Shown: positions 5,338 through 56,508 of the stretch, in pieces
Layout of the letters: each line of letters starts with the position of its first letter
Numbering within the stretch: position 1 is the stretch's first letter
DNA from: a bacterium HR11
Lineage (GTDB): Bacteria > Acidobacteriota > HRBIN11
Assembly: GCA_002898535.1 (NCBI GenBank)
Contig: BEHN01000001.1
Location: forward strand, 261,564 to 325,563
Direction: 5' to 3'
DNA: 64,000 nucleotides
Notes under the pieces: generated by a model
Database searches by the model: none
Told to the model about the DNA's origin: nothing
Seen by the model: the letters and a program-made list of their open reading frames with translations, nothing else
Translations under genes and position numbers: made by a program

Positions 5338-5367
5338 GGCCGTGAGGCGATAAGGCAGTTATTCTAA

Positions 5368-5627
5368 CAGAGCCGTTCGGTTGGTGAAAATCCGCGTGGA
5401 TTCGGCCTTTTCGACCCTTCGGGAAGGACGGTTTTCAAGCTTTGGCAGATAGGCAGTTCGGCAGGTGGGCAGATGGTCCCAAAAGCCCTGGGGCTGATCC
5501 TTGCCCACCCGGCTTCTATCTGCCTATCTGCCGACCTGCCCATCTGCCGGATGCTTGAAAAATCGTGCTTCCCGGGGGATGGGAAAGATTGTTCCGACGC
5601 CATTCTCACGAACCGAACGGCTCTGCT
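5368..5627. repeat. Repeat family A copy 1: ~260-bp MITE-like palindromic element with terminal inverted repeats
   Basis: The termini cagagccgttcggttggtgaaaat and attctcacgaaccgaacggctctg are reverse complements of each other. An internal palindrome has the arms ttggcagataggcagttcggcag and ctgccgacctgcccatctgccgg. Near-identical copies are at 15383-15627 and 57477-57744, with partial copies at 13629-13700 and 49913-50112. Confidence 0.8.
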
Positions 5628-5711
5628 AAGCTGGCTCCGATCAACCTATCGCCCGGCCTGCTAATCGCCTTACCGCCTTACTGCCTTATTGCCTTGTTCA
5701 TTTGACGGCTC

Positions 5712-7823
5712 ATGTCTTTCCAACGATTGATCGAAGACCTGGACGAGTCCCAACGGCAAGCCGTCACGACCCCGTCCCCGCAGGTCCTGGTCCTGGCCAG
5801 CGCCGGGGCCGGCAAGACCCGCGTCCTGACCCATCGGCTGGCCTGGCTCGTCGGCCATCATCCCCGGGCGGCCTTCCTGGCCGTGACCTTCACGAACAAG
5901 GCGGCCGACGAGATGCGTCAGCGGGTCGAGGCCCTCCTGGGGGACGCCCGCTCGGCGTGGAAGGCCGAGCACACCTGGATCTCGACCTTTCACCGCTTTT
6001 GCGCCCGCATCTTGCGGAAGTACGGCTATCGGATCGGCATCCCGTCCGACTTCATCATCGCCGACGAGTACCAGCAACGGCGGGTCTTCGAGGACTGCCT
6101 CCGGGCCCAGGGCCTCGACCCGAAGGCCCACGCCGGGGCCTTCCGGTCCTTCCAGCGGCTTCGGTCCGAGTTTGCCGATCCGCCGCCCCATCTGGACGAA
6201 CCGTGGCCGACCCTGTGGAAAGACTACCTTCGGCGCCTCCGGAGCCTGCGGGCCCTGGACTTCGACGACCTCCAGTACGAGACGATCCGTCTCCTGGAAA
6301 CGGATGCGGCCCTTCGGACTTATCTGGCCGAGTACTTTCACACGGTCCTGATCGACGAGTTCCAGGACACGAACCCGCCCCAGTACCGGCTCCTGCGGCT
6401 CCTGCGGGAGGCCGACGCCCCGTTCTTCGTCGTCGGCGACCAGGACCAGTCGATTTACGGCTTTCGGGGGGCCCGACCGGACCACTTTCACGACCTCCTT
6501 CGGGACTATCCGAGGACGGAGGTCATCCCCTTGCGGTACAACTACCGGTCCCGGGCCGTCATCGTCCGGGCCGCCATGGAGGTGATCGCCCGAGACGAGC
6601 GGCGTCTGCCTCACGAGGTCCAGGCCCTCCAGCAGGGCGGTCGTGTCCTGATTTATGGAGCCGTGGACGACCGAGACGAAGCCCGGTGGGTCCGCCAGCA
6701 GGTCGAGCGCATCCGGGACGCCTCGCCGGACGCCCAGGTCGCCGTCCTCGTCCGGGCCCGAAGCCAACTGCCGGCCCTCGAGCAGGCCTTCCAGGGCGCC
6801 CGCTTCCCCTACGTCGTCATCGGCCTCCGGAGCTGGTGGGACAGTCCGCCGATCCGGGCCGTCCTCGACTATGCGGCCTTCTGTGCCCATCCCGAAGTCG
6901 ACTTCTACCTGGAGGCCGTCTGCAACGTGCCGTCCCGGGGGATCGGCCCCCGGGCCCTTCAGAAGCTCCGGGAGCGGGCCGGGGACCGGCCGCTGTGGAC
7001 GTACCTGACGGAAGCCGTTCAGGCCGGGGAGGACACGCTTCCGACGGTATGGCAACGGTTTTATCGGGAGATGTCCGAGTGGATCGCCCTCCGGCCGGAG
7101 GTCCCGCCCGTCGAGTGGGTCCGCCGCCTGACGGAGTTCCTGCAAGAGCGGGGCTTTGGCGATGCCCGCCAGCGAGCGTCTTACGCCGATCGATGGAAGG
7201 AGCTCCTCCAGCTCCTCCGGGACGTGAAGACGTGGCCCGAGTTCATCGAACAGTTGAGCCTCCGGGCGCCAGACGACCGGCGCCTCGACGCCTCCGAACA
7301 GCGCGCCGTCCTCATCATGACGGTCCACGCCGCCAAGGGCCTCGAGTTCGACTACGTGTTCATCCCGGGCGTCGAGGACGGCCTGTTCCCTCACTTCCTG
7401 GCCGAGACGCCGGAAGAGGCCCGGGAGGAGCGGCGAATATTTTTCGTGGCCGTCACGCGCGCCCGTCAGGAGGTCTTCATCTCGTGGTCGGCCGAGCGGT
7501 ACAACCACCGACGGTCGCCGTCGCCGTTCCTCGGGGACATGCCTCTGGCGGAGCTTCGGGTCGAGGGTCTCCCGCTCCGGCGGTGGTTCCCGGAGGCTTG
7601 GCGGGCGGCCGTCGCCGCCAGCGCTCCTGCGGCGGCCGGCCCCGAAGAGCCGCTCCAGCCCGGCGACCTCGTCGAGCATGCCGCCTACGGTCGGGGGATC
7701 GTCCGGTCCGTTCACGGGGAAGGCGACCGCATGAAGGTCCGCATCTGGTTCTTCACAGGCGAGACCCGAGAGTTCCTCTTACGGCAGGCACCGATCCGTG
7801 CCCTCCGGGGCCGGCATAAATGA
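5712..7823 (+). CDS. UvrD/PcrA/Rep-family ATP-dependent DNA helicase
   Basis: 703 aa with Walker A (ASAGAGKTRVL), helicase motifs (FTNKAADEM, VLIDEFQDTN, VGDQDQSIYGFRGA) and a C-terminal UvrD_C region (MTVHAAKGLEFDYVFIPG). Confidence 0.85.
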   Translation: MSFQRLIEDLDESQRQAVTTPSPQVLVLASAGAGKTRVLTHRLAWLVGHHPRAAFLAVTFTNKAADEMRQRVEALLGDARSAWKAEHTWISTFHRFCARILRKYGYRIGIPSDFIIADEYQQRRVFEDCLRAQGLDPKAHAGAFRSFQRLRSEFADPPPHLDEPWPTLWKDYLRRLRSLRALDFDDLQYETIRLLETDAALRTYLAEYFHTVLIDEFQDTNPPQYRLLRLLREADAPFFVVGDQDQSIYGFRGARPDHFHDLLRDYPRTEVIPLRYNYRSRAVIVRAAMEVIARDERRLPHEVQALQQGGRVLIYGAVDDRDEARWVRQQVERIRDASPDAQVAVLVRARSQLPALEQAFQGARFPYVVIGLRSWWDSPPIRAVLDYAAFCAHPEVDFYLEAVCNVPSRGIGPRALQKLRERAGDRPLWTYLTEAVQAGEDTLPTVWQRFYREMSEWIALRPEVPPVEWVRRLTEFLQERGFGDARQRASYADRWKELLQLLRDVKTWPEFIEQLSLRAPDDRRLDASEQRAVLIMTVHAAKGLEFDYVFIPGVEDGLFPHFLAETPEEAREERRIFFVAVTRARQEVFISWSAERYNHRRSPSPFLGDMPLAELRVEGLPLRRWFPEAWRAAVAASAPAAAGPEEPLQPGDLVEHAAYGRGIVRSVHGEGDRMKVRIWFFTGETREFLLRQAPIRALRGRHK

Positions 7824-7831
7824 CCACGAAC

Positions 7832-7930
7832 TATAGACCATGGACCACAGACCTAAGGGTGGTCTGGTTTCTTCGTGCCAGGACGGGGAACGGAGTGAAT
7901 GGGGTCTGAGGTCTGTAGTCTATGGTCCCT
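7832..7930. repeat. Repeat family B copy (ATAGACCAyrGACC tandem units forming a palindrome)
   Basis: ctatagaccatggaccacagacc ... ggtctgaggtctgtagtctatggtcc. Other copies are at 15188-15327, 18603-18727, 32064-32206, 41459-41574, 55598-55862, 56428-56520 and 63900-63940. Confidence 0.7.
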
Positions 7931-7945
7931 TTTAGCCTGGGACCT

Positions 7946-10288
7946 TCACTGGGTCACGACTTCAAAGGGGACCTGCCGCCGGGCCACGCAAGGCGGGTCG
8001 GTCGTCCGGACCTCGACCTCCAGACGGTAGCCGCCCGCCGGGAGACCCCGGTAGGGAAGCAGGAAGAAGTTCGTGACGACCTCCGGGGCCGAGCCCTGGA
8101 ACTTCAAGGTCGTCGGGGGCGTCTCGTTGACCGGTTGGCCGTCGGCCCGATACAGACGGAAGAGGACCTGCATGGCCTCGGCCTTCAAAAGTGAGGCCGG
8201 GAGCAGGACCTGATAGAGGCCCCCGAGTTGGCCCTGGGGCGGGAAGTTCTGATACGGCGTCAGCCGGATCAGGTAGTTCTTGTACTGGGCATGGCCTCCG
8301 GACGTCCACTGAAGCTGGGGCACGCTCGTGTCGGCCTGCCGGATTTCGCTACTCAGGATGAAGGTCCCGACCTCGGGGCAACTCGTGGGCCGGACGTCGG
8401 GCCACTGCCACCGGGTCGCCATCGTCTTCCAGCCGCCGGCCTCGAGGACGCCCCACACGACGGTCACGCCGGGCTGTTTGATGGACAGGACCTTCGAGTA
8501 ATGGACGGCCGCCTGGGCCTTCTCCAGCTCCGGCAGGTCTTTCAAGGGAATCTGAATCGGCAGACGCTCGTAGCCCTTATCGACGACCTTGAAGTCGGCG
8601 TCCCGGACGACCCAGGCGACGTGGATCTCGTCGTACAGGACGTCCGGCGTCGTCGTCAGGGGCGTCAGGTGCCGAATCGGGACGGCCAGACTCATGTGGA
8701 GGTCGAGCGTCTGGGGCGTCCGCCAGAGATGCCGCAGAGACATCGGGACGTCCGGCCAGGGGAAGAGGTCCGCAAAGTCGAGGGCCGCCGCCAGCTGGCG
8801 GCTCACCCGGAGAGACCAGGGGATTTCGGCATAGGCCCTCCGGGTCCGGACCCTCAGGCCGGGCCGTCGGACCTTCAACTGAATCGAATGGTGCTTGATG
8901 CTGTCGGGAAGCGACCCGAGGTCAAAGCTGATGAGGTAGTAATGCCGAAAGTCGCTCCCGATTTGCTGAAAGAACTTGTCGAGACCCGTCGGCGACGTCC
9001 AGGCCACGCCGCCCGTCTGCTCGGCGATGCCCGCCATCTGGTACTGAATGTTCACGACGTTGAACTCGGCTGTGATCGTGGGCCGGATGTTCGTCTCGGC
9101 GCCCCACTCGGGATTCGGCTGGGTCGGATTGACCCAGTAAATGGTCAGACCCGCTGTGTTGGCCGAGCGGACGATTTCCTCATAGGTGCGAACCTCAGCC
9201 GAGTAGGTACTCAATTCTCGCTGGAACTCCTGCGCGATCGAAACCTCTACCGTGGGGGGAATGTCATGCCGCTGGACGTTCCATCGGAAGGCTTGGAGTG
9301 CATACGACAGGTAGTAATTCCCCGTCGGGTCGAAGCCCTCGGAGACGAATAAGACGCTCTTCCGACCCGGCACGTGGGCCAGAAAGTCAAAGACCGTCCG
9401 GAGGGATGCCTCCAGGTTCTGGGCGACCCGCCGGTCCTCGAGGCCCATGTTGCGGGCCGTATGGAAGGCATCTCGGGCGATCTGCTCGTAGCACATCTGC
9501 CGCCGGTCGAGGTCCTCATAGATGGAGCAACCCTCGAGCCGCTCCAAGATGCCGTCGAGGGTCGAAAGCCGACTGACCGTCCACGCGGCCCCCCGCACGC
9601 CAGCCCCGACCCGCTCCAGGGTCTTCAACACCAGGTCTACGTCTTGGGTCAATCCGTGCTCGACCCGAAAGCCCCCGCTGGCGTCCAGACTCACGAACAT
9701 GAAGTAAGCCCCCATCCGGTGGAGTTCCTCCAAGAACCGGCGCAGGGATTCCTTCAGCGTGGCCAGGGTCAGGCCGCCCGTGTGGGCCTTGTCATACAGG
9801 ATGATGAACGTATTGAAGGGCGTCCTCGGCGGCACGGCGCCCGCCTGCTGATAGGGTCGGACGACCTCGCCGGTGACCTGGACCGGCGGCGGTGCCTCCG
9901 GGGTGGCCGGGGGCTTTTCGACGGCGACGAGGTCCACGTAACGGACGGGATAGGCCTTCCCGTCGACGGTCAGCTCGAAATCTTCGGGCTTGAGGCCGTA
10001 TACGAATTGGCCCTTATCGTCGTAAACGAAGACCTCGACCTGCCCCAGACGGACCTCAACCCGAGCCTGGGCACCCGGGAAGGTGTAGACCTGCTCTTGC
10101 GGGGACGGCGGCTTCGGCGTCTCCTGGGCCGGGACCGGCAGGACGCTCCACAGCCAAAGGGACAGGAGGATGAGGCAGATAGGCAAGTGGGCAGGTGGGC
10201 AGGTGGGACGGTAAGGAGCGCCGGCCTCCGGCCCGTGAGAAGATGACGAGCCGGAAACGGCGCGACGATGGGATGGTATAGGCCTCAT
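7946..10288 (-). CDS. VWFA-domain protein of the Acidobacterial TIGR03436 type, secreted/membrane-anchored
   Basis: About 780 aa. The N-terminal signal/TM segment is LPICLILLSLWLWSVLPVPAQE, and the VWA-like core carries FVSLDASGG and LFVSEGFD motifs. The listed ORF extends to 10426, but the ATG at 10288 (MRPIPS) is the more plausible start. Confidence 0.65.
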   Translation of the reverse strand: MRPIPSHRRAVSGSSSSHGPEAGAPYRPTCPPAHLPICLILLSLWLWSVLPVPAQETPKPPSPQEQVYTFPGAQARVEVRLGQVEVFVYDDKGQFVYGLKPEDFELTVDGKAYPVRYVDLVAVEKPPATPEAPPPVQVTGEVVRPYQQAGAVPPRTPFNTFIILYDKAHTGGLTLATLKESLRRFLEELHRMGAYFMFVSLDASGGFRVEHGLTQDVDLVLKTLERVGAGVRGAAWTVSRLSTLDGILERLEGCSIYEDLDRRQMCYEQIARDAFHTARNMGLEDRRVAQNLEASLRTVFDFLAHVPGRKSVLFVSEGFDPTGNYYLSYALQAFRWNVQRHDIPPTVEVSIAQEFQRELSTYSAEVRTYEEIVRSANTAGLTIYWVNPTQPNPEWGAETNIRPTITAEFNVVNIQYQMAGIAEQTGGVAWTSPTGLDKFFQQIGSDFRHYYLISFDLGSLPDSIKHHSIQLKVRRPGLRVRTRRAYAEIPWSLRVSRQLAAALDFADLFPWPDVPMSLRHLWRTPQTLDLHMSLAVPIRHLTPLTTTPDVLYDEIHVAWVVRDADFKVVDKGYERLPIQIPLKDLPELEKAQAAVHYSKVLSIKQPGVTVVWGVLEAGGWKTMATRWQWPDVRPTSCPEVGTFILSSEIRQADTSVPQLQWTSGGHAQYKNYLIRLTPYQNFPPQGQLGGLYQVLLPASLLKAEAMQVLFRLYRADGQPVNETPPTTLKFQGSAPEVVTNFFLLPYRGLPAGGYRLEVEVRTTDPPCVARRQVPFEVVTQ

Positions 10289-10462
10289 GGAGCCACCTCC
10301 CGGGGTGCGGACGGACGAAACCCGGCACCCGATCCCTGGCACCTCCATTATAGCGCGGGGGGAATCGTGGGGGATTGGGGACCCGGCGTCGGGTAAGTGG
10401 AGGCGCATGGGGGCGCCGCCGTTCAAGGCGACGCCCCCAAAAGAGGGCCTTAGGCGTTCACG

Positions 10463-13585: not shown

Positions 13586-13628
13586 AGATGCCTCCTTTTT
13601 AGAAATGCAGAAGACCTAAGACCCTATC

Positions 13629-13700
13629 CAGAGCCGCTCGGTTCGTGAGAATGACATCAGAACCACCTTTCCCATCCCCCGGGAAGCACGATTTTTCAAA
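13629..13700. repeat. Repeat family A, truncated half-copy
   Basis: cagagccgctcggttcgtgagaatgacatcagaaccacctttcccatcccccgggaagcacgatttttcaaag matches the right arm of family A in reverse orientation. Confidence 0.65.
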
Positions 13701-14480
13701 GGGACGGAGTGACGATGTAAGCCTGCCCGTCGGCCCAGGACCGTGGCTCGTCCCTTCGTCCCTTCAAAAAACCGTCCTCCGACTCTTTTGCCGCACGCCC
13801 ATCCTCAAATCCCGGCTTCTCGGTCCTCCGCCCCTCCCGGGACCCAACACGTTGTATCCTGCACTTTGGGGGTCTTGATTACAAGCAAAAAGCGTTCCGG
13901 AACGGCGGGCACACCGGGGCCCATCCGGATTCCGCATCAGAGGCCGATCGGGCCCGACCTCCGCCCCAGGCCCTCGACCCGCTCCGACGTCCATTTTTTT
14001 GAATCCCCCGGCAGGGTATCCAAAAAATTGAACGTAGGGCCATGGGCAGATAGCAGAGCCGCGACGCAGGGTCGGACCCGCGTCCCATCGCACCGACGGC
14101 TGATGGATCGGACCGGCCGTAGTTTGACAACTGCGGGGGCTTCCGGTACCATAAAGCGAAGTGGGGTCGGCTCGTTTCAGCCGCGCGGGGGCTTTCAGGA
14201 CGGTGTCCAACGGAGGTTAAAATTTGTTTTATCCGATTTGTAATCCCAAGCCGACATCAGTCCAGGACGGGATGTGCGCCTTACTTAGAGCGTATTTCAA
14301 AAACTCCATTTCACCGCTGAGACGCCGAGAACGCAGAGAAAAATCGAAGAAACACCCTCGGCCTCTGCGTCCTCTGCGCCTCGGCGGTGAGTTTTGGAAC
14401 AGGCTCTAAGGGTCCTGTTAAGGTGAAAGGTCGACGGAAACGGAAGGCCATCTTATGAAATCTCGTCGAGGAGGACGAAC

Positions 14481-14984
14481 ATGGCCAGCAAACTCATGGT
14501 CGGCGAGGCTCTGGTCGGCGACGGCAACGAGGTCGCCCACATCGACCTGATCATCGGTCCGAAGGACGGGCCGGTCGGACAGGCTTTTGCGAATGCCTTT
14601 GTGAGCCAGCGGGCGGGCCACACGGCCCTCCTGGCGGTCGTCGCCCCGAACCTGCCTGCGAAACCTGACGTCGTGATCGTCAACAAGGTCACGATCAAGG
14701 GGGAAAAGCAGGCGGTCCAGATGTTCGGTCCGGCGCAGGAGGCCGTGGCCCGGGCGGTCGTCGATTCGGTCAAGGAAGGGGTCATCCCCAAAGATCAAGT
14801 CGACGACCTGTGTCTGGTCGTCGGGGTGTTCATCCACTGGGAAGCCCAGGACAACAAGAAGATTTATGACTTCAACTACCAGGCCACGAAGCTGGCCATC
14901 GCTCGGGCCCTCAAGGGCGAGCCGAAGGCTGACTATGTGATCCAGCAGGCGGCCACGACGACGCATCCCTTCCGGGGATTCTAA
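14481..14984 (+). CDS. fae: Formaldehyde-activating enzyme (5,6,7,8-tetrahydromethanopterin hydro-lyase)
   Basis: 167 aa with near-colinear similarity to methylotroph Fae ([20 protein letters not shown] ... [10 protein letters not shown] ... [18 protein letters not shown] ... VGVFIHWEA ... ATHPF). A strong RBS gaggagg lies upstream. Confidence 0.9.
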
Positions 14985-14995
14985 TCATTCATTTA

Positions 14996-15052
14996 TGTGT
15001 CGGGTGCTGGGTGTTCGGTCGGGTGCCCTGACCCGACACCCAGCACCGTCTC
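14996..15052 (+). terminator. Long near-perfect hairpin immediately downstream of fae (putative intrinsic terminator)
   Basis: gtgtcgggtgctgggtgttcggtcgggtgccctgacccgacacccagcaccg forms a ~20-bp stem starting 11 nt after the fae stop codon. Confidence 0.45.
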
Positions 15053-15187
15053 GTATCCCGCATCCCGTATCCCGCATTTCGTATCCGGGTGTCTCGGTCG
15101 GAGACTTTCTCTCATAGGGCCTTACCTGGGAGCATGGGCCTTTTCAAGCGTGGTGACGAAGTCCAGGGACGCATAACGAGAGCCAGT

Positions 15188-15327
15188 CTCATCAATCCGA
15201 CGGGACGGGGATCGGACCCTCGATATCCGACCCCAGACCGTAGACCACAGACCATAGACCATGGACCTTAGACCCCGTGGGTCTAAGCCGGTCTGTGGTC
15301 TGGGGTCGATGGTCGGATTTATGAGAT
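15188..15327. repeat. Repeat family B copy with terminal inverted repeats (tctcatcaatccgac / gtcggatttatgaga)
   Basis: Central ccccagaccgtagaccacagaccatagaccatggacc is mirrored by ggtctgtggtctggggtcgatggtc. Confidence 0.7.
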
Positions 15328-15382
15328 CGCTTGGAGGGACGGGATTCAGGTCATGCATGCGTCCTCGGCCTGGGGAACCTAA

Positions 15383-15627
15383 CAGAACCGTTCGGTTCAT
15401 GAGAATGGCGTCAGAACAATCTTTCCCATCCCCCGGAAAGCACGATGTTTCAAGCATTTGGCAGATGGGCCGTCGGCAGATAGGCAAGTCGGCCGATGGG
15501 CCGGTCGGGCGACTGCCCATCTGCCGACCTGCCGATTGGCCCATCTGCCGAGTGCTTGAAAAATCGTGCTTTCGTGGAGGTGCCCTTTCCGCTTCCCATC
15601 GCACTTCTCACCTCCCGAACGGCTCTG
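15383..15627. repeat. Repeat family A, full copy in inverted orientation
   Basis: Starts cagaaccgttcggttcatgagaatggcg and ends cacctcccgaacggctctg. The internal ggcagat(a/g)ggc... palindrome is conserved. Confidence 0.8.
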
Positions 15628-15666
15628 CTAAGTTGAACGCCCAACACCCGGCACCTGACACCTACG

Positions 15667-16422
15667 ATGGGTCGTCTGGCGGGATTGAAAGCCGTCGTCA
15701 CGGGGGGCAGTAGCGGCATCGGTCGGGCCATCGCGGAGGCCTTCGCCCAAGAGGGCGCCACAGTCTTGCTGACTTATCGGGTCTCGGCCGAGGCGGCGCA
15801 GGAAGTCGTCCAGGCGATTCAGGCCCGGGGCGGCCAGGCCGAGGCTTTCCAGGTCGACCTGAGCACGCGGGCGGCCTGCGAGGCCCTCGTCCGAGAGGCC
15901 CATGCCCGGCTCGGCCGTCTGGACGTCTGGGTCAACAACGCCGGGGCCGACATCCTGACGACGGAGGCGGCTGGGTGGGACTGGGAGCGGAAGCTGGACC
16001 TGCTCTTGGCCGTCGACCTGAAGGGGACGATCGCCTGCTGTTATGCCGTGGCGCCCCTCATGCAGGCCCAGGCCGAGGGCGGTTGCATCCTGAATATGAG
16101 TTGGGACCATGTCCTGTTCGGCATGGCCGGCGAGAACCCCCAGCTCTTTGCGGCCGTCAAGGGGGCCATCTTTTCTTTCAGCAAGAGCCTGGCCCGGGCG
16201 TTGGCCCCGAAGGTCCGGGTCAACGTCCTGGCCCCGGGCTGGATCGAGACCCGCTTTGGAGCGACCGTCGACCCGAAGTTTCACCGCGCTGTCGCCGACA
16301 GCATTCCCCTCCGCCGGTGGGGGCGGCCGGAGGACGTCGCCGCCGTCGCCGTCTTTCTGGCTTCCCCGGAGGCGACCTATCTGACGGGGCAGGCGATCTT
16401 GATCAACGGGGGCGTGATATAA
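15667..16422 (+). CDS. Short-chain dehydrogenase/reductase (SDR) family protein, atypical active site
   Basis: 251 aa with TGGSSGIGRAIA (NAD(P)-binding) and NNAG motifs. The canonical YxxxK appears as FAAVK, a Tyr-to-Phe change based on my hand alignment to classical SDRs. Confidence 0.85.
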   Translation: MGRLAGLKAVVTGGSSGIGRAIAEAFAQEGATVLLTYRVSAEAAQEVVQAIQARGGQAEAFQVDLSTRAACEALVREAHARLGRLDVWVNNAGADILTTEAAGWDWERKLDLLLAVDLKGTIACCYAVAPLMQAQAEGGCILNMSWDHVLFGMAGENPQLFAAVKGAIFSFSKSLARALAPKVRVNVLAPGWIETRFGATVDPKFHRAVADSIPLRRWGRPEDVAAVAVFLASPEATYLTGQAILINGGVI

Positions 16423-16423
16423 T

Positions 16424-16528
16424 ATTCGGGAATTCGGGAGTTCGGGCATTCGGCCGTCGGGCCGTCGGGCCGTTCGGGCGCCGCCCGACTTCCCACGGCC
16501 GGACTGCTGAATTCCCGGTATCCTTCCG
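16424..16528. repeat. Repeat family D: tandem GAATTCCCG / TTCGGGC-type short repeats
   Basis: attcgggaattcgggagttcgggcattcggccgtcgggccgtcgggccgttcgggc ... gaattcccgg. Related blocks are at 22830-22875, 47168-47325 and 57796-57885. Confidence 0.6.
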
Positions 16529-16569
16529 CCGACCGCCCCTCATGACCCGAAATTCTCAGGAGGGCGGTC

Positions 16570-16935
16570 ATGGCACGACCCCAATTGAAGGTTTACTCGG
16601 AAGAGGAGATCCAGGTCAAGCTCAAGGAGATGGGCCTCGACGAGTGGTACTACGAGGACGGCTGGCTCCGGCGCAAATACAATACCGACGGCTGGCCGAC
16701 GACCCTGATGCTCGTCAACGCCATCGGGTACCTCGCCGAGGCGGCCTGGCATCACCCGGACCTGTCCGTCACGTGGGGCAAGCTTTGGGTCAAGCTCCGC
16801 ACGCATCACGCCAACGGCATCACCGACAAGGACTTCGAGCTGGCCCGGAAGATCGAAGACGTCGTCCTCTGGCGGCCGGGCCCCGAGAGTGCCCTCGAAG
16901 GCACGCCCAACAAGTTCGTCTTCAGTAAGAAGTAG
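16570..16935 (+). CDS. Pterin-4a-carbinolamine dehydratase (PCD/DCoH family)
   Basis: 121 aa with the PCD signature EAAWHHPDLSVTWGKLWVKLRTHHANGITDKD. Confidence 0.85.
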   Translation: MARPQLKVYSEEEIQVKLKEMGLDEWYYEDGWLRRKYNTDGWPTTLMLVNAIGYLAEAAWHHPDLSVTWGKLWVKLRTHHANGITDKDFELARKIEDVVLWRPGPESALEGTPNKFVFSKK

Positions 16936-17212
16936 GTGTCGGGTTGGACAGGGGGGCGTCCGTCCCAACGTTCAGGCCACGTACCCGGGTCCTGGGGACC
17001 GGCGAGGACGGTTTGAAGTCCGCCCTGACTCACGCTACGTCGGTGGGTGGGCAGGACCGCTTGTGGGACAGGACATGTCCGATGTGCGTGTTTGAATGGA
17101 AGACGCTTGCAGGACGGCGAGGACCCGGTGTTTTTCGACGCTGTTATGGGAGTTCACGGGAGGGACGCCGGGCCCGGGACCCGGGACCTGACACTCGGGA
17201 CCTTTTCGTGGG

Positions 17213-18610
17213 GTGGCGACGTCCGTGGGGGAAAAGTATCTGTTCGTGACGGGAAAGCTGGCGGCCCCGGCGCTACGGGCGACCCTGGCGCAGGCCCATC
17301 TGCCCTTCGACTACGAGGTCGCCGTCATGAACATCAGCGTCGCCGCCCTGATGACACCGGAGTGGATCGCCCGCTTCTTGGAAGTCCCGCCGGGCGTCAC
17401 CCGCATCATGATCCCCGGCCTCTGCAAGGGCGACCCGCAAGTCCTGACGCAGAAGTTCGGGATTCCGGCCGAGAAGGGGCCGCCGGACCTGAAGCAGATC
17501 CCGAGCTACTTCGGTCGGGCCGGCGTGCGAGAGGACTACGGAGCGTATAACATCCGTATCTTCGCCGAGATCAACGACGTCCAGCGCCTGACTCTCGACC
17601 AGATCGTGACGATGGCCGAGTACTATCGGGCCAGCGGGGCCGACGTCATCGACCTGGGCCTGGCTTTAGACCGGCCGTGGGATGAAGGCCCGGCCGTCAT
17701 CGCCGAGCTGAAGGCTCGGGGCTTGACCCTCAGCATCGACACGATGAATCCCGACGAGATCCTCCGGGCCGACGCCGCCGGCGTCGACTATGTCCTCAGC
17801 CTAAACGGGTCGAACCTTTACCTGGCCGAGCGCATCCGGGCGACGCCCGTCCTGATCCCGGACAGCCCGGGCGACTTGGCGAGCCTGGAGCGGTCGATGG
17901 CCGTCCTGGAGCGTCTCGGCAAGCCCTACCTGGTGGACCCCATCCTGGAGCCGATCAACTTCGGATTTGCCGAGAGCCTGGCCCGCTACGTCGAGGTCCG
18001 CCGTCGGCATCCCGACGTCGAGATCCTGATGGGCATCGGCAACGTCACCGAGCTGACGGAGGCCGACACGACGGGGATGACGGCCTTGCTCATCGGCTTC
18101 TGCCAGGAACTGGAAATTCATCACGTCCTGACGACGGAGGTCATCCCCTGGGCCCGGGGCGTCGTCCGGGAGACGGCCATCGCCCGTCAGTTGATGTACT
18201 ATGCCAAACGGCACGGCGTCCTGCCCAAGCATATCGACAGCCGCCTCCTGACGGTCAAGGACGCCGAGTTCATGCCCTACACGGAGGCCGAGCTCCGTCA
18301 GCTCCAGGCTCAGGTCACGGACCCCAACTACCGTATCTTCGCCGACGCCGATTGGATTTACGTGTTCAACGCCGACCGCTTCGTCAAGGGCGTGGACATC
18401 AATGAAATCTTCGACCAGCTGGAGGTCGACGAGGCGACCCACGCCTTCTACCTGGGCAAGGAACTGATGAAGGCTTACATCGCCCGGTGCCTGCGCAAGA
18501 ACTACCGGCAGGAGAACCCCCTCGACTGGGGATACCTGACGTTTGACGAACCCCGGCGGGAACATGTCAAACTGACCCAGCGGGGCAAGGCGAAGCGGGG
18601 CGTGATATAG
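17213..18610 (+). CDS. Dihydropteroate-synthase-like (pterin-binding) protein with C-terminal DUF4346-like domain, H4MPT biosynthesis type
   Basis: 465 aa starting at a GTG. Pterin-binding DHPS-like core (GADVIDLGLA ... LSIDTMNPDEI ... GVDYVLSLNG) in the fae/mtd cluster. The same architecture occurs in archaeal and bacterial methanopterin biosynthesis loci. Confidence 0.7.
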   Translation: MATSVGEKYLFVTGKLAAPALRATLAQAHLPFDYEVAVMNISVAALMTPEWIARFLEVPPGVTRIMIPGLCKGDPQVLTQKFGIPAEKGPPDLKQIPSYFGRAGVREDYGAYNIRIFAEINDVQRLTLDQIVTMAEYYRASGADVIDLGLALDRPWDEGPAVIAELKARGLTLSIDTMNPDEILRADAAGVDYVLSLNGSNLYLAERIRATPVLIPDSPGDLASLERSMAVLERLGKPYLVDPILEPINFGFAESLARYVEVRRRHPDVEILMGIGNVTELTEADTTGMTALLIGFCQELEIHHVLTTEVIPWARGVVRETAIARQLMYYAKRHGVLPKHIDSRLLTVKDAEFMPYTEAELRQLQAQVTDPNYRIFADADWIYVFNADRFVKGVDINEIFDQLEVDEATHAFYLGKELMKAYIARCLRKNYRQENPLDWGYLTFDEPRREHVKLTQRGKAKRGVI

Positions 18611-18727
18611 ACCACGGACCTCAGACCACGGAGTCGGGACCCTTGACCTGGGTCGGCCGGAGGGCCCCGTCTTGGAATGTAGCGGCCCGAGCTCCCCAGG
18701 TCAGTCTGTAGTCTGTGGGCCACAGTC
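18603..18727. repeat. Repeat family B, degenerate copy
   Basis: atagaccacggacctcagaccacggagtcggg ... cagtctgtagtctgtgggccacagtc. Confidence 0.5.
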
Positions 18728-18750
18728 TTTTTCACACCGCGAGGTGGGCC

Positions 18751-19626
18751 ATGAAGAAAATCCTCATCCAACTCGACACGGACAAGCATCCGAGCACCTT
18801 CGACCGCATCGTCGCTTATGACGCCGGGGCCGACGAGGTCCTCAGTTACGGCGGCGTCACGCCGGGCGACGTGCGGGGCCTCGTCCTGAGCGCCGTCTTC
18901 ACGCGGGGCGTGCCGGACCTGAAGACCATCGCCGTCTGGATCGGGGGCTTTAACGTCGCCCTGGGCGAGCAAATCCTGGCCGAGGTCCAGCGGTCCTTCT
19001 TCGGACCCTTCCGGGTGTCCGTCATGCTGGACTCGAACGGATGCAATACGACGGCGGCGACGGCCATCGCCAAGCTCGTCAAGGCCCACGACCTCAAGGG
19101 CAAGAAGGCCGTCGTGATCGGCCTGGGGCCGGTCGGCCTCCGGTCGGCCCTGCTCCTCCAGCAGGAGGGCTGTTCGGTCACGGTCACGTCCATCCCGCCG
19201 GACCTCCTGGGCGCTCGGTACAACCCGGAAATCGCCCGCCAGAGCTTGGAGATGGCTCGGCAGGTCCCGAACCTTACCGTCGAGGACGTTCCCGACCGGA
19301 CGGCCCTCGAGCGCTGTCTGGAGGGGGCCGAAATCGCCATCACCGCCGGTCCGGCCGGTGTCCAGCTCCTGCGTTATGACTTCTGGTCGAAGCATCCGAC
19401 GCTCCGGTGGCTGGTCGATTTCAACCTGACCGAACCCTTAGGGATCGAGGGTATTAAGCCGTCGGACGACCTGACCGAACGGGACGGCAAGCTCGTCCTG
19501 GGTCCGCTGGCCATCGGGAATCCCAAGATGAAGGTCCACAAGGCGTGCGTCGCCAAGCTCTTCGAGCGCAACGACCTCGTCTTGAACATCGAAGGGGTCT
19601 ACGCCGTCGCCCGAGAAACGGTGTAA
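18751..19626 (+). CDS. mtdB: NAD(P)-dependent methylene-tetrahydromethanopterin dehydrogenase (MtdA/MtdB family)
   Basis: Colinear with methylotroph MtdA/MtdB (ILIQLDTDKHPSTFD ... FFGPFRVSVMLDSNGCNTTAA ... KGKKAVVIGLGPVG ... KVHKACVAKLFE). The start is set at the ATG at 18751, preceded by ggtggg. Confidence 0.85.
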   Translation: MKKILIQLDTDKHPSTFDRIVAYDAGADEVLSYGGVTPGDVRGLVLSAVFTRGVPDLKTIAVWIGGFNVALGEQILAEVQRSFFGPFRVSVMLDSNGCNTTAATAIAKLVKAHDLKGKKAVVIGLGPVGLRSALLLQQEGCSVTVTSIPPDLLGARYNPEIARQSLEMARQVPNLTVEDVPDRTALERCLEGAEIAITAGPAGVQLLRYDFWSKHPTLRWLVDFNLTEPLGIEGIKPSDDLTERDGKLVLGPLAIGNPKMKVHKACVAKLFERNDLVLNIEGVYAVARETV

Positions 19627-19663
19627 GGAATCGGTGAAGTCCGACACCCAGCCCTGAGGGCTC

Positions 19664-20758
19664 ATGCGTGTCCTCGGCATCGACCCGGGTACGGTCTCCT
19701 TTGACGTATGCGGTCTGGAGGACGGCCGGGTCTTCTTGGACTTACAGGTCGCCTCGCCGGACCTGGCGGAGGACCCGTCCCCTCTGGTGGAAACTCTGCG
19801 GGCCTGCGGTCCGGTCGACCTGGTCGTGGGTCCGTCCGGTTACGGCCTGCCCCTTGTGCGCGGCGACCAGGTCGGGGAGCGGGAACTGGCCCTGATGGTC
19901 CTCGTTCGAGCCGACGACCCGACGGCGGGACAGGGCGGGATCCAGGGATTTCGCCGCATTGTGCAGGCCCTGATCGCTACCGGCCTGCCCGTTGTATTCG
20001 TCCCGGGGGTCATCCACCTCCCGACGGTCCCGGCTTATCGGAAGGCCAATCGCATCGACATGGGGACGGCCGATAAGGTTTGTAGCGCCGCCCTGGGGAT
20101 TTATGACCAGGCTCGACGCTACGAGATCCCGTACGCAGAGACGTCCTTCATCTTGCTGGAGCTGGGCGGCGCCTTCACGGCGGCCCTGGCCGTCGAGAGA
20201 GGCCGGATCGTGGACGGTCTCGGCGGCGCCTCAGGCCCCATCGGCCTGCGGAGCGGCGGGGCGATGGACGGTGAAGTCGCCTACCTCATCGGTGGGGCCC
20301 TTTCCAAAGGAACGGTCTTCAGCGGCGGGGCGGCGGACATCGCCGGAGCCGATCCGGCCACGGATATCGAGACATGGCCGGACGATCCCCGCTACCGACC
20401 GGCCTGGCGGGCGTGGGTCGAGGGCGCCGTCAAGGCCGTCCGGGCCCTGACGGCCGTCCTGCCGCGGCCTCGGGAGATCTTGCTATCGGGCCGGATGAGT
20501 GCCTTGGGACGGGTCATCGCCGAGATGACTGACCGTCTTTCCGATATCGCCCCCGTCCGGCGGATGGGCGGCTTGGCCTGGCCTGACGGGACGCCGGTCC
20601 GGGCGAAGGAGGCGGCCCAGGGGGCGGCGCTCCTGGCCGACGGCCTCGCCGGAGGTCCCTTCGAACCTCTCGTCGAGGCCCTGGAACTCCGCCGGGCTTC
20701 GGGGACCGTCCTCGATTACCTATATCTTCGGGGCGCCGAGACGATTCGCCTCCGATAG
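19664..20758 (+). CDS. DUF1464-family protein (ASKHA/actin-like ATPase fold) associated with H4MPT-linked C1 clusters
   Basis: 364 aa with an N-terminal MRVLGIDPGTVSFD phosphate-1 motif typical of the ASKHA fold. DUF1464 genes are conserved in methanopterin pathway loci. Confidence 0.65.
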   Translation: MRVLGIDPGTVSFDVCGLEDGRVFLDLQVASPDLAEDPSPLVETLRACGPVDLVVGPSGYGLPLVRGDQVGERELALMVLVRADDPTAGQGGIQGFRRIVQALIATGLPVVFVPGVIHLPTVPAYRKANRIDMGTADKVCSAALGIYDQARRYEIPYAETSFILLELGGAFTAALAVERGRIVDGLGGASGPIGLRSGGAMDGEVAYLIGGALSKGTVFSGGAADIAGADPATDIETWPDDPRYRPAWRAWVEGAVKAVRALTAVLPRPREILLSGRMSALGRVIAEMTDRLSDIAPVRRMGGLAWPDGTPVRAKEAAQGAALLADGLAGGPFEPLVEALELRRASGTVLDYLYLRGAETIRLR

Positions 20759-20804
20759 GCAGGGCCGTAAGGCGATATCGCCTCACTGCCTGACTGTCCT
20801 TCCC

Positions 20805-21974
20805 ATGGCGATTCTCCTCGTCGGTTACAGCGTCCGCATGCTTGCTGAGCTGGCCGTCCGGGCCGGCTACGACGTATTCGCCCTGGACTACTTCGGCGAC
20901 GCCGACCTGCGGGCCTTGTGTCCGGGCCTGTCGCTCCGGCACGACTTCAATGGCCAGTCTTACGACCCGAGGACGCTCGTTCGTATCGCCGCCACGCTGA
21001 GTCACCCGGCCGTCGTGTACGGGGCCAGCTTTGAAAACCATCCTGCGTTGGTCGTCCGTCTGGCCCGGGGACGGCGGCTCCTGGGCAACTCGCCGGCGAC
21101 CCTTCGGGGCGTCCGAAACCCCTTCCGTCTCGGCGACGTCTTACGGTCGGCCGGCCGGGCCTTTCCCGAGACGCTTCCGGCGGACCCAGTGAAGCGGCCG
21201 GACCCGAAGCGCCGATGGCTCCTGAAGCCCCTGCGGAGCGGCGGCGGGCACGCCGTCCGGGTCTGGTCCGGGGGTGCCGTCCCATCGGATGCCGTCTTGC
21301 AGGAATACCGTCCCGGCATGGTCGGCTCGGCCGTCTTCGTGGCCGACGGTCGGCGGGCCGTCCTGCTCGGCGTGACCGAACAACTCGTCGGCCGCCGAGC
21401 CTTCGGCGCTCGGGACTTCCGGTACTGCGGGAACCTCGTCCCGCCCCGCTTGGCATCCGACGAGCTGCGGGCCCTCATCGATGAGGCTCGGGCCGTCGCC
21501 GCCGTCCTGACCGAGGCCTTTGGGCTTCGGGGCTTGAACGGCATCGACTTTGTCTGGTCGGGGGGGCGCCTCTGGACGATCGAGGTCAATCCCCGGCCGC
21601 CGGCTTCCTTAGAGCCCCTGGAGATGGTCTACGGGTATCGGACTTTCGAGCTCCACGTGCGGGCCTTCGACGGGGACCTACCGGAATTCGACCTCGGGCA
21701 GGCCGAACGGCGGGTTTCGGCGGCGGGCAAGGCGGTCCTCTACGCGACCGAGGACGTGACAGTCGGTGATACGGGGGACTGGCCCGGGCGAGGCATTCGG
21801 GACGTGCCCCATCCGGACGAGTTCATCCCGCGAGACCGGCCGATTTGTACCCTGCGGGCGGTGGGCCCGACGCCGGCGGCGTGCTTGAACCGACTCCGGC
21901 GGCGGGCCCGCTGGATTTACTCCCGACTGGGGTGCTCCTCATTCGTAGGGCGATGGAAAAGGCCCAGGGCATAG
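20805..21974 (+). CDS. ATP-grasp domain protein (methanopterin/cofactor glutamate-ligase-like, orfY-type)
   Basis: 389 aa with ATP-grasp features (LLKPLRSGGGHAVRV ... NGIDFVW ... IEVNPRP). It sits at the 3-prime end of the fae-mtd cluster. Confidence 0.65.
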   Translation: MAILLVGYSVRMLAELAVRAGYDVFALDYFGDADLRALCPGLSLRHDFNGQSYDPRTLVRIAATLSHPAVVYGASFENHPALVVRLARGRRLLGNSPATLRGVRNPFRLGDVLRSAGRAFPETLPADPVKRPDPKRRWLLKPLRSGGGHAVRVWSGGAVPSDAVLQEYRPGMVGSAVFVADGRRAVLLGVTEQLVGRRAFGARDFRYCGNLVPPRLASDELRALIDEARAVAAVLTEAFGLRGLNGIDFVWSGGRLWTIEVNPRPPASLEPLEMVYGYRTFELHVRAFDGDLPEFDLGQAERRVSAAGKAVLYATEDVTVGDTGDWPGRGIRDVPHPDEFIPRDRPICTLRAVGPTPAACLNRLRRRARWIYSRLGCSSFVGRWKRPRA

Positions 21975-32025: not shown

Positions 32026-32063
32026 TAAGCCATCTCATATAAAGGTGCCTGGAAGCGCTCGCA

Positions 32064-32206
32064 TCCATCCGACCATAGACCATAGACCACAGACCACGGA
32101 CCATAGACCGGCTTGGGCCCAGGAGCTCCATGGTCCATGGTCTATGGTCTATGGGCTGTGGTCGGATATCGAAGGTCCGATCCCGGTCCCGTCGGATTTA
32201 TGAGAT
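32064..32206. repeat. Repeat family B copy (terminus gtcggatttatgag)
   Basis: ccgaccatagaccatagaccacagaccacggaccatagacc ... ggtccatggtctatggtctatgggctgtggtcggat ... cgtcggatttatgagattgg. Confidence 0.7.
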
Positions 32207-32420
32207 TGGTTTTAGGCAGATGGGCCGATAGGCAGTCGGCGATTGGAAGTGCGAGGCGCGGAAAGATTGCGAATTGCGAATTTCAGATGGCGAATTCGCG
32301 ATCCGCCATTCGTATTCCGAAGTCCCTCAGTCCCTGACGTCCGATACCCATTCTGCATCCTGTATCCTGACTCATGACCTATTTCGTGCATCCTACAAGC
32401 TCACGCCAGGAGGGCTCACG

Positions 32421-39990: not shown

Positions 39991-40659
39991 TTACAACAAG
40001 GAGCGCTGACCCGGGTTCCCCATGGAAATAGCCGCCTCGGCGCCGACGTGTTCCGGACAATCGACGCGCAGTGTCGTCGGCCCCAAGGGTCGGTCCAGCA
40101 GGGCACAGTGGTGGGGCGTCGGCGTGCCGGGGTGGACATCCTGTCGAAAGAACCGACAGGTGAGGCACATCCGGGCGACCGTGATGACGCCGGCCCGCTG
40201 GAGTTCGACGATAAGCCGCATCAGGAAATTCAAGACGGACGTCTTCTCGTCCAGTCCTGCAAAGCTCAGGGAGTCCCGGACAGTGTTGGCCCACGCCGCC
40301 AGGCGACGGGCCAGCCGGCGGCCGTCAGGCGTCAGGTCCAGGACGGACGACCGGCGGTCCGAGATGTCGGGCCGGCGACGGACTAAACCTTTGGATTCCA
40401 AAGCCGTCACGGCGTCACTGACGGTCGCCTTGGTCAGCCGGAAGGCCTGGGCCAAGCCGCTCACGCGGCGGTGCGCCTCGGGTTGATACAACAAGTAACA
40501 CAGGAACTGGACCTGGATAGGACTCAAGCCGTGGGTCTGGCCGACCCGCCAGAGAAGGACCCGGAAGGCCTGGGCCAGACGCTCGAGGGCGGCGACGAGC
40601 TTGCTGTCGACGTCGTCGTGCTGGAAGGTGAGGTCCCATACCGGGGGACGTTGGGTCAT
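39991..40659 (-). CDS. MarR-family transcriptional regulator with Cys/His-rich C-terminal extension
   Basis: The MarR wHTH core is LSPIQVQFLCYLLYQ ... LTKATVSDAVTALESKGLVRRRPDISDRRS. An extra ~60-aa tail contains CLTCRFF, HHC and CPEH. Confidence 0.8.
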   Translation of the reverse strand: MTQRPPVWDLTFQHDDVDSKLVAALERLAQAFRVLLWRVGQTHGLSPIQVQFLCYLLYQPEAHRRVSGLAQAFRLTKATVSDAVTALESKGLVRRRPDISDRRSSVLDLTPDGRRLARRLAAWANTVRDSLSFAGLDEKTSVLNFLMRLIVELQRAGVITVARMCLTCRFFRQDVHPGTPTPHHCALLDRPLGPTTLRVDCPEHVGAEAAISMGNPGQRSLL

Positions 40660-40903
40660 GGGGACTTTCTCCGCACCGTCCGCAAGATAAGTCGTCGGGC
40701 CGGGTCCGTCAAGCGGCTGGAGCTGGTAGGGGTGGGGGAGGGCCGTCTCATCAGGTCCGGGACGGCCCTTGGGAAGAGGCGAATCGGCTCGACGGATTTC
40801 CGGCCCTCGCTTGCGGGCCCTCCTCCTGGCTTCCTTCGGGATTCTTGACAGGGGAGACGGCTTCGGATAAAATGATTAGGAATCCTAACTAAAAGGAGGT
40901 CCG

Positions 40904-41398: not shown

Positions 41399-41458
41399 AA
41401 CTCCCGAGCGATGTCGGCCCCCGGGTCGTCCCCCTATCCCGGGGGCCCCTTTATTAAA

Positions 41459-41574
41459 CTCATAAATCCGACCATAGACCACAGACCATAGACCTGCTTA
41501 GGCCCAGGTGGGCCTATGGTCCATGGTCTGGGGTCGGATGTCGAGGGTCCGATCCCGGTCTTATCGGATTCTTA
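41459..41574. repeat. Repeat family B copy flanked by 9-bp direct repeats (ttattaaac)
   Basis: ttattaaaCTCATAAATCCGACCatagaccacagaccatagacc ... cggtcttatcggattcTTATTAAACtacgg. The direct flanks could be a target-site duplication. Confidence 0.65.
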
Positions 41575-49907: not shown

Positions 49908-49912
49908 GTTAG

Positions 49913-53156: not shown

Positions 53157-53317
53157 CGTCGCCTCCTCGAATTGATGGGACTGGCCGACGTCGGCCCGGT
53201 CGGGGGCCTGAGCCGACGGATGGCCGGAACGGTCCCCCCAGGACGTAGGCAAGACCATTGTATCGGAACCCATGTCCGATTGCAACCTTTCCCCGAGAGT
53301 CCTAAACTTATCTCGGT

Positions 53318-56434: not shown

Positions 56435-56508
56435 TGCAGACCATAGACCACGGGCCCCAGACCTCTACGGTCCGTGGTCTATCGTCCATGGTCGATGGTC
56501 TTGGGTCC

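Follow-up and report, generated by a model that had tools for sequence, protein, structure and literature searches.

Does a compact run of genes in an acidobacterial genome encode part of the tetrahydromethanopterin (H4MPT)-linked route of formaldehyde oxidation, a route central both to methylotrophy and to the debate on the shared ancestry of methanogenesis and methylotrophy, and if so, where is the remainder of the route? The question is raised by a stretch of 64,000 nucleotides (hereafter, the window) from bacterium HR11 (contig BEHN01000001.1 of assembly GCA_002898535.1). Seven genes at 14481-21974 are predicted to encode, in this order, formaldehyde-activating enzyme (Fae), an atypical short-chain dehydrogenase/reductase (SDR), pterin-4a-carbinolamine dehydratase (PCD), a DHPS-like pterin-binding protein, a dehydrogenase of the Mtd family, a protein of the family DUF1464, and an ATP-grasp ligase (Table 1). 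A preliminary description, made from the sequence alone, had read them as an H4MPT-linked cluster for one-carbon (C1) metabolism and cofactor synthesis. This reading is supported by the family assignments and, more strongly, by the contiguity of these genes, in related organisms, with fhc, mch, and genes for H4MPT and methanofuran biosynthesis. We consider it likely that these genes make up the front half of an H4MPT/methanofuran island for formaldehyde oxidation, in a variant conserved outside the Proteobacteria, and that this half is here separated from the one containing fhc and mch.

All seven open reading frames (ORFs) are intact, lie on the forward strand at the positions that had been described, and bear a strong coding signature (G+C at third codon positions of 0.81-0.89; 65.5% G+C for the window). 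A counterpart with the further half is locus L033 (ENA ERZ25039533), where the same seven genes occur in the same order (58-77% identity; a PemK toxin gene is inserted) and run on into genes for an FwdD-like protein, FhcB, FhcA, FhcD, FhcC, Mch, and a ligase of the MptN/RimK type. FhcB, FhcA, FhcD, and FhcC score above the respective cut-offs (TIGR03129, 03121, 03119, 03122); Mch, which is frameshifted, stays just below that of TIGR03120, and FwdD and the RimK ligase are also below theirs. In L067, L111, and L119, mtd, the DUF1464 gene, and the ATP-grasp gene precede fhc genes (of which L111 has fhcD alone), mch, and rimK. An ATP-grasp gene stands beside fhc and mch genes in L060, L097, and L107, and in the former two the genes for Fae, SDR, and PCD (and, in part, the DHPS-like protein) are on the strand opposite to those on the fhc/mch side. 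In Thermoleophilaceae, the genes for SDR, PCD, and the DHPS-like protein lie between mch/ATP-grasp and a pyrroloquinoline quinone (PQQ) dehydrogenase gene with pqqB/C/E. With the complete island represented by L033 and such further loci, the window is thus best read as its front half.

The order from fae to the DUF1464 gene is likewise kept in a sister lineage (eight contigs, L001-L008), with the ATP-grasp gene inverted, and in metagenome-assembled genomes (MAGs) of Solirubrobacteraceae (48-73% identity), where the ATP-grasp gene precedes them on the opposite strand. Because the same genes recur in the same order in independent lineages, their clustering is not due to chance, and the SDR, PCD, and DUF1464 genes are not loose neighbors but conserved parts of an island type. 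Between the window and the sister lineage, Fae and PCD are 100% identical proteins and the other five 84-96% identical; the complete identity of the former argues for strong purifying selection on a presumably working module. In the sister lineage the flanks are occupied by genes for 3-hydroxyacyl-CoA dehydrogenase, enoyl-CoA hydratase, and DciA on one side and for PEMT, PCC, and AIRS on the other. The position next to an operon for branched-chain amino acid synthesis, which had been singled out as noteworthy, is therefore incidental. The label "Acidobacteria-like" given to the sequence is consistent with two NCBI MAGs named Acidobacteria or Acidobacteriota bacterium (GCA_033582755.1 and GCA_025061865.1, isolate SKYB104), in which the module stands, as in the window, between a TonB receptor gene and ilvD-ilvB-ilvN, with 85-95% protein identity. 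The identical Fae protein is encoded on at least 23 metagenome contigs, of which the eight inspected belong to the sister lineage, and an exact copy of the ExbB of the window is present in assemblies of runs DRR101362-4.

Fae is 62% identical, over 162 of its 167 residues, to the crystallized enzyme of M. extorquens (1Y5Y) and exceeds the cut-off of an NCBIfam equivalog-domain model (TIGR03126; Table 1). The high identity to 1Y5Y argues that it is a true Fae and not one of the paralogs Fae2 or Fae3. Since homologs of Mtd are 291-304 residues long, its translation probably starts at the ATG at 18751, which gives 291 residues, as in the homologs P0001 and P0002. The protein matches the MtdA structure 1LU9 over its full length (E = 4e-66) and, as had been proposed, is predicted to be a methylene-H4MPT dehydrogenase of the Mtd family. 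The earlier assignment as MtdA/B-type did not hold for MtdB, as identity is 43% to MtdA and 28-34% to the Mtd of classical loci of the type rimK-mch-ATP-grasp-mtd, the latter being labeled MtdB-like by gene order only. In a neighbor-joining tree of 27 Mtd sequences from the fetched loci, none of them a named MtdB or MtdC reference, the window protein is placed on the MtdA side, together with Mtd encoded within fhc operons of the island variant; its ortholog is the only mtd product inside the fhc/mch operons of the relatives. The protein thus appears to be of the MtdA/MtdC type and to do the job of MtdB. Affiliation with MtdC had been considered damaging, as if that clade were one of unassigned function; MtdC was reportedly characterized by Vorholt and colleagues in 2005 as an NADP-dependent methylene-H4MPT dehydrogenase, and belonging to it would not speak against the pathway.

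The fetched loci hold some further features in their own right. In L010 (11423-17349; Thermoleophilaceae) and L014 (1656-6255; Methylomirabilota), the genes for SDR, PCD, and the DHPS-like protein are followed by those for an MSMEG_3727-type PQQ-associated protein and a PQQ-dependent dehydrogenase and by pqqB/pqqC (in L010 also pqqE), which suggests that alcohol oxidation is coupled to the H4MPT route there. A DUF2193 protein ("conserved in archaea") is encoded beside mch in L029 (6386-9051) and L119 (10001-12930), in both cases with a small glutaredoxin-like ORF, and beside mtd in L067 (291-2635), with an MIP channel; it thus recurs in variant H4MPT islands, and none of these genes is present in the window. 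L119 contains two copies of mch.

An altered short-chain dehydrogenase and its partners

The SDR had been called atypical, and HMMER alignments to FabG structures confirm this: the position of the catalytic serine is occupied by W146 (NMS-W-DH) and that of the catalytic tyrosine by F161 (L-F-AAVK), so that the Asn-Ser-Tyr-Lys tetrad of classical SDR oxidoreductases is incomplete. The lysine, the glycine motif TGxxxGxG, and an arginine after strand beta-2 are retained; by SDR cofactor rules, this conserved arginine suggests the use of NADPH, as in DmrA. This altered pattern is kept in 13 homologs (with histidine in one). When 1.84 billion representative proteins were searched, ∼55 of the top 150 clusters showed it, with phenylalanine at the tyrosine position and tyrosine itself in few. 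The pattern, named W-D-H/Q here, marks a distinct clade of SDRs.

In every one of the 10 bacterial lineage groups whose upstream flank is visible (the window and sister lineages, Thermoleophilaceae, Solirubrobacteraceae, Planctomycetia, Isosphaeraceae, L033, L035, L060, and the partly visible Methylomirabilota), the SDR gene immediately precedes the DHPS-like gene, and in seven of them the PCD gene is placed between the two. Those of the groups that can be named cover four phyla. Moreover, full-length fusions of HPPK to an SDR with the W-D-Q motif were found in three representative proteins (P0404, P0413, and P0414), each of which represents a separate 50%-identity cluster; to our knowledge, such a domain architecture has not been described before. 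The DHPS-like gene of L067 is directly preceded by one for a flavoprotein that matches the solved dihydromethanopterin reductase AfpA/DmrB (3WIS/4MWG, E = 3e-35). When the AfpA of L067 was used in tblastn, no AfpA/DmrB (PF02441) homolog was detected in the window or in any locus with a W-D-H/Q SDR; the flavoprotein and an SDR of this clade were never seen in one locus. Taken together, the altered active site, the adjacency to the DHPS-like gene, the HPPK fusions, and the slot held by AfpA/DmrB elsewhere lead us to propose that the SDR uses NADPH to reduce a pterin of the H4MPT pathway, most likely as the dihydromethanopterin reductase. The HPPK fusions suggest, as an alternative role, the supply or salvage of hydroxymethyl-dihydropterin. 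No literature linking dihydromethanopterin reductase to short-chain dehydrogenases was found.

An apparent Fae::SDR fusion (P0397) has domains truncated on both sides; it looks like a frameshift or gene-calling artifact and was not counted. Between fhcA and fhcD, L067 (9209-9967) encodes another, classical SDR with an intact YxxxK, in a complete island that has AfpA/DmrB as well.

The PCD displays the full catalytic signature of its family, E-x3-H-H-P-x5-W-x9-H-x8-D, which can be read directly in the translation (EAAWHHPDLSVTWGKLWVKLRTHHANGITDKD), and matches PCD/DCoH structures in the PDB. The signature given by Naponelli and colleagues in 2008 is said to be [EDKH]-x3-H-[HN]-[PCS]-x5,6-[YWF]-x9-[HW]-x8,15-D. 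By signature, the protein is thus assigned to the pterin-4a-carbinolamine dehydratase family (COG2154/PF01329), which would fit the dehydration of a 4a-hydroxy-pterin arising from oxidation of the cofactor. The DHPS-like protein consists of an extra N-terminal DUF6513 domain, a pterin-binding barrel, and DUF4346. It scores 166.7 bits against the archaeal model TIGR00284, below the cut-off of 256.65, with barrel and C-terminal region covered; its matches in the PDB are weak (FolP/Sul enzymes, E 0.005 and worse). Homologs occur in Thermoleophilaceae, Solirubrobacteraceae, Methylomirabilota, Planctomycetes, and Methanobacteriaceae (the methanogen one at 26-30% identity), and the protein is treated here as belonging to a putative bacterial sister group of TIGR00284, not as a member by the curated threshold. 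An HPPK gene neighbors the DHPS-like gene in L035 and L067. Its role would be the H4MPT-specific condensation of hydroxymethyl-dihydropterin diphosphate with an arylamine ribosyl phosphate.

For the DUF1464 protein, sequence search returned no match in the PDB. A predicted structure (pLDDT 85, pTM 0.90) resembles butyrate and acetate kinases most closely (TM ∼0.58, 17% identity), in agreement with the ASKHA fold that had been assigned to it, and our best guess from this model is an ATP-dependent kinase in cofactor synthesis. In L033, L067, L111, and L119, the gene is flanked by mtd and the ATP-grasp gene and lies beside fhc; in L101 and L106, all three are found next to fhcD. It follows mtd in L076 and L077, where no ATP-grasp match is present, and in L035 follows the DHPS-like gene and adjoins HPPK. 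In L119 (8698-8844) and L121 (654-800), an ORF of 48 codons with a weak match to LysW-type zinc ribbons is located between mtd and the DUF1464 gene, upstream of the ATP-grasp gene, which recalls amino-group carrier systems (LysW, the ATP-grasp protein LysX, and the kinase LysZ). The corresponding gap in the window measures 37 bp and has no room for such an ORF. For DUF1464, DUF6513, and DUF4346, essentially no open-access literature was found.

The ATP-grasp protein best matches an uncharacterized ATP-grasp protein (3DF7) in the PDB and no NCBIfam model except, weakly, PurT. Its gene is directly upstream of fwdD-fhcB in L033, L067, and L119; relative to mtd and fhc, it takes the place of an ATP-grasp gene that classical loci have between mch and mtd, and the window protein is 24-34% identical to the product of the latter. 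That classical gene we take, by the gene order in M. extorquens, to be OrfY/MyfA. A role as a glutamate ligase of methanofuran or methylofuran synthesis, like MyfA/OrfY or MfnD, may therefore be proposed, the glutamate ligase activity of MyfA (OrfY) in methylofuran synthesis, and likewise the role of MfnD, being as given in PMC8141765.

Proposed pathway and rival explanations

If the seven proteins have the activities predicted for them, Fae would condense formaldehyde with H4MPT and the MtdA/C-type dehydrogenase would convert the resulting methylene-H4MPT to methenyl-H4MPT, from which Mch and Fhc, presumably encoded elsewhere in the genome, would lead to formate. The remaining products would serve the cofactors. 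The DHPS-like protein would form the pterin-arylamine bond of H4MPT; the SDR would act as an NADPH-dependent pterin reductase, either on dihydromethanopterin or feeding the HPPK step; PCD would dehydrate 4a-hydroxy-pterin arising from cofactor oxidation; and the kinase-like DUF1464 protein and the ATP-grasp ligase may contribute to the synthesis of methanofuran or methylofuran (possibly of the H4MPT side chain) for the Fhc complex.

One point against this reading is that the second half was not seen in this lineage. The genes mch, fhcABCD, and mptG had been reported as absent from the window, and Pfam scans, which beyond the module covered the ORFs with coding signature, agree: none of them, nor any other H4MPT/methanofuran gene, was found among the coding-signature ORFs of the 64 kb. 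None was found either in the ∼6 kb that exact-protein look-ups added beyond the left window edge (ExbD, a TPR protein, epimerases, and an ABC transporter; nothing was gained on the right), and the 20-kb loci of the sister lineage, which reach 10 kb to either side of the module, contain none of these genes. No Mch named as acidobacterial was among the 120 best matches to a related Mch (at least 64% identity), of which few carry names, and two context look-ups from such matches led to other organisms. Of the 80 loci obtained when metagenomes were scanned with FhcD, none belonged to the window lineage. The absence of second-half genes from the window, the added flank, and the sister-lineage loci, and of an acidobacterial name from the Mch matches, would be expected if the module were a remnant that has lost mch and fhc, no longer oxidizes formaldehyde to formate, and either decays or has another use, for example, only binding formaldehyde to H4MPT; partial H4MPT gene sets have been reported in other taxa (PMC5020050). 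We regard a remnant as quite unlikely. All seven ORFs are intact with full coding signature, the identity of Fae and PCD between two lineages speaks for strong purifying selection, and the retained ATP-grasp ligase, if engaged in methanofuran synthesis, would be useless without Fhc; furthermore, the Mch search covered only the best 120 matches, few of them named. Of the two possibilities that had been left, a split or a partial pathway, the comparison with other loci favors the split, as do the strong conservation and the fact that the module has kept a putative methanofuran-type ligase; a split is thus the more probable for this genome.

The function of the SDR is the other point of contention. 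Together with PCD, it could form a repair couple for oxidized H4MPT, in which PCD dehydrates 4a-hydroxy-H4MPT and the SDR reduces the quinonoid dihydro form, or it could salvage dihydropterin-6-aldehyde to hydroxymethyl-dihydropterin for HPPK. Dihydropteridine reductase is itself an SDR, the catalytic signature of PCD is intact and its gene adjoins that of the SDR in most lineage groups, and the HPPK fusions fit a product that enters at HPPK; a pterin aldehyde reductase feeding hydroxymethyl-dihydropterin is documented in plants (PMC5372827). Yet the SDR occurs without PCD in the planctomycete loci and in L035 and takes the slot of AfpA/DmrB, which is a biosynthetic reductase, and an aldehyde reductase normally needs the catalytic tyrosine that is missing here. 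Repair or salvage as the actual function is therefore doubtful in our view. Far less probable, to the point of being nearly discounted, is that the cluster serves tetrahydrofolate (H4F) or another pterin, with the MtdA-like protein as methylene-H4F dehydrogenase and the DHPS-like protein, SDR, and PCD serving the metabolism of folate or biopterin. Biopterin is the classic setting for PCD and for reductases of the SDR type, the closest solved relative of Mtd, MtdA of M. extorquens, is deposited as a bifunctional methylene-H4MPT/methylene-H4F dehydrogenase, and close Mtd homologs bear a combined H4F/H4MPT name at JGI. The first gene of the module, however, encodes the H4MPT-specific Fae, the Mtd, DHPS-like, and SDR genes of the relatives are embedded among fhc, mch, AfpA/DmrB, DUF447, and CitG-like genes, and the DHPS-like protein matches TIGR00284 (167 bits) far better than bacterial FolP.

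The assignment as a biosynthetic reductase has weak points of its own. As the SDR lacks the serine and tyrosine of the catalytic tetrad, it might not be an oxidoreductase; the replacement of AfpA is known from the single locus L067; and the HPPK fusions point equally to a step adjacent to HPPK as to the final reduction of dihydromethanopterin. Similarly, the association of DUF1464 with pterin genes in L035 and with fhc/ATP-grasp elsewhere leaves its pathway ambiguous. The most far-reaching form of the hypothesis is accordingly put forward as tentative, albeit a real possibility: the SDR would represent a fourth, non-flavin, NADPH-dependent class of reductases for dihydromethanopterin (or an H4MPT-precursor pterin), which replaces AfpA/DmrB/DmrA in Acidobacteria, Thermoleophilia, Methylomirabilota, and Planctomycetes and works by tryptophan stacking and an aspartate instead of Ser/Tyr; in aerobes, it would moreover pair with PCD to repair H4MPT, and DUF1464 would add a new kinase to the synthesis of methanofuran or H4MPT.

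Feature map and surroundings

Table 1. Genes and other features in and around the module (positions refer to the window).
Feature	Position	Strand	Description
sigma-70-like promoter match	14124..14152	+	TTGACA-17-TACCAT, ∼330 nt upstream of fae; consensus match only
fae	14481-14984	+	167 aa; Pfam Fae 3e-72; TIGR03126 259 bits, cut-off 118
stable RNA hairpin	14994..15055	+	directly 3′ of fae stop codon; no T-run
two dispersed intergenic repeat elements	15183-15340, 15373-15635		inside fae-SDR spacer; no part in module function
SDR gene	15667-16422	+	251 aa; adh_short_C2 4e-56
PCD gene	16570-16935	+	121 aa; Pterin_4a 1e-24; NF002017 82.7 bits, cut-off 80
DHPS-like gene	17213-18610	+	465 aa; DUF6513 3e-23, PterinBD-DUF4346, weak Pterin_bind
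mtd	18751-19626 (ORF opens 18715)	+	291 aa; Mpt_N 1e-27
DUF1464 gene	19664-20758	+	364 aa; DUF1464 1e-90
ATP-grasp_3 gene	20805-21974	+	389 aa; PF02655 1e-19

Sigma-70-like matches in the region numbered two, against 0.8 expected, which is no sign of function. The hairpin after fae is unusually stable (minimum free energy of -49.4 kcal/mol for 14980-15100, z = -4.7, with none of 200 shuffles folding as well), and a similar one is present in L026; it is possibly an element that stabilizes or attenuates the transcript. The spacer between fae and the SDR gene measures 682 bp, compared with ∼150 bp in L001-L008 and 294 bp in L026, being inflated by repeats. A hidden gene or RNA in this gap was considered and dismissed, as the gap is filled by the two dispersed repeats and the hairpin. 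Rfam and tRNA scans of the window detected only a tmRNA, far from the module, and no known riboswitch in the long spacers.

The repeats belong to two intergenic families. Copies of the first, ∼260 nt long, are located at 5367-5629, 13626-13739, 15373-15635, 49906-50085, and 57474-57744; they contain octamer runs of GGCAGATA/GGCAGGTG and conserved arms with TTGAAAAATCGTGCTT, and two of them are 95% identical over 263 nt. The second (7822-7869, 15183-15340, 32045-32209, 41456-41570, 55598-55860, 56437-56502, and 63900-63947) consists of heptamer runs (GACCATA/GACCACA/GACCACG) in palindromic elements of 80-160 nt that resemble repetitive extragenic palindromes or miniature inverted-repeat transposable elements. 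A search with one motif pattern for each family found neither in any fetched locus, the first being absent also from the fetched loci of the closest MAG, so that the repeats did not serve as a marker of the lineage.

Upstream, the module is preceded by exbBD/tonB, a leucine dehydrogenase-like gene, uvrD, and a gene for a TonB-dependent receptor. Downstream are ilvD, ilvB, ilvC, leuA, leuCD, proC, gltB, leuB, and the genes for a MarR regulator and cytochrome P460, as well as dnaG, priA, ribD, terC, and genes for a class V fructose-1,6-bisphosphatase, the tmRNA, RNase G, a two-component system, and a multiheme cytochrome. Between uvrD and the TonB-dependent receptor gene, an ORF of 826 codons on the reverse strand (7946-10426) carries a strong coding signature and has no Pfam match. 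The fructose-1,6-bisphosphatase is of the archaeal type (FBPase_3, 3e-157; 52047-53285) and its gene adjoins that of the tmRNA (53326-53656; Rfam 125 bits). At 39991-41398, the genes for the MarR-family regulator and cytochrome P460 (2e-38) are divergent.

Comparison with known systems

In methylotrophic Proteobacteria, the cluster comprises fae, mtdB, mch, fhcABCD, orfY/myfA, orf5/myfB, orf7, orf9, orf17, orf19-22, afpA or dmrA, and mptG. The window follows the same pathway logic and shares Fae, a dehydrogenase of the Mtd family, an ATP-grasp gene near mtd, and a DHPS-like gene with it; its relatives carry, in addition, fhcBADC, mch, and genes for a RimK-type ligase and for CitG-like, DUF447, and GHMP-kinase-like proteins. 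In contrast to the proteobacterial cluster, Mtd is of the MtdA/C type, the DUF1464 gene separates mtd from the ATP-grasp gene, the DHPS-like gene is preceded by that of a W-D-H/Q SDR, usually with PCD, where L067 has AfpA/DmrB, and the fhc-mch half is missing from the window. In the passages of PMC8141765 consulted on this "archaeal-like" proteobacterial cluster for H4MPT and methylofuran, neither SDR nor PCD nor DUF1464 is named as belonging to it.

The islands of Planctomycetes, in which an MtdA-like dehydrogenase (MtdC) has the role of MtdB and Afp is lacking (PMC5020050, Chistoserdova), resemble that of the window in being non-proteobacterial, and two planctomycete loci (L021 and L023) have a W-D-Q SDR gene directly upstream of the DHPS-like gene, which in L023 is followed by DUF447 and a GHMP-kinase-like gene. 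Unlike the window, they have no PCD gene between the two, and identity to the window proteins is 42-50%. As Planctomycetes are reported to lack the known dihydromethanopterin reductase (PMC5020050), the SDR candidate bears on them as well.

The clade of the window SDR holds the same gene position next to the DHPS-like gene that AfpA holds in L067, and differs from DmrA, DmrB/AfpA, and DmrX in having no sequence relationship to them, being a Rossmann-fold SDR with tryptophan and phenylalanine in the active site. DmrA is DHFR-like, and DmrB/AfpA and DmrX are FMN proteins. These are the known dihydromethanopterin reductases (PMC6193120). The pairing of PCD with a protein of SDR fold among pterin-related genes is also reminiscent of the pair formed by PCD and dihydropteridine reductase in the regeneration of tetrahydrobiopterin. 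In the pteridine reductase PTR1, too, the catalytic serine of SDRs is replaced, by aspartate, and both PTR1 and dihydropteridine reductase retain the tyrosine. The window SDR has no such tyrosine and stands in the context of H4MPT, not biopterin; no gene for an aromatic amino-acid hydroxylase is present near the module in the window or in the sister-lineage loci.

The combination of an MtdA/C-type Mtd, DUF1464, and a W-D-H/Q SDR with PCD in place of AfpA is thus a variant of island architecture for which no description was found. Several steps of cofactor synthesis still lack an assigned enzyme, and the variant provides three candidates for them, namely an SDR whose active site is rebuilt, a PCD, and the kinase-like DUF1464 protein, whose context is conserved across several phyla and, for the SDR, supported by gene fusions. 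H4MPT/methanofuran islands were known from Proteobacteria, Planctomycetes, and several other phyla, with Acidobacteria absent from a survey of 2016 (PMC5020050). As fae genes are now routinely seen in diverse MAGs (PMC10994693), the phylum alone would be a modest extension; what the module suggests is that an acidobacterial lineage, represented to date by metagenomes and MAGs only, detoxifies formaldehyde or oxidizes C1 compounds.

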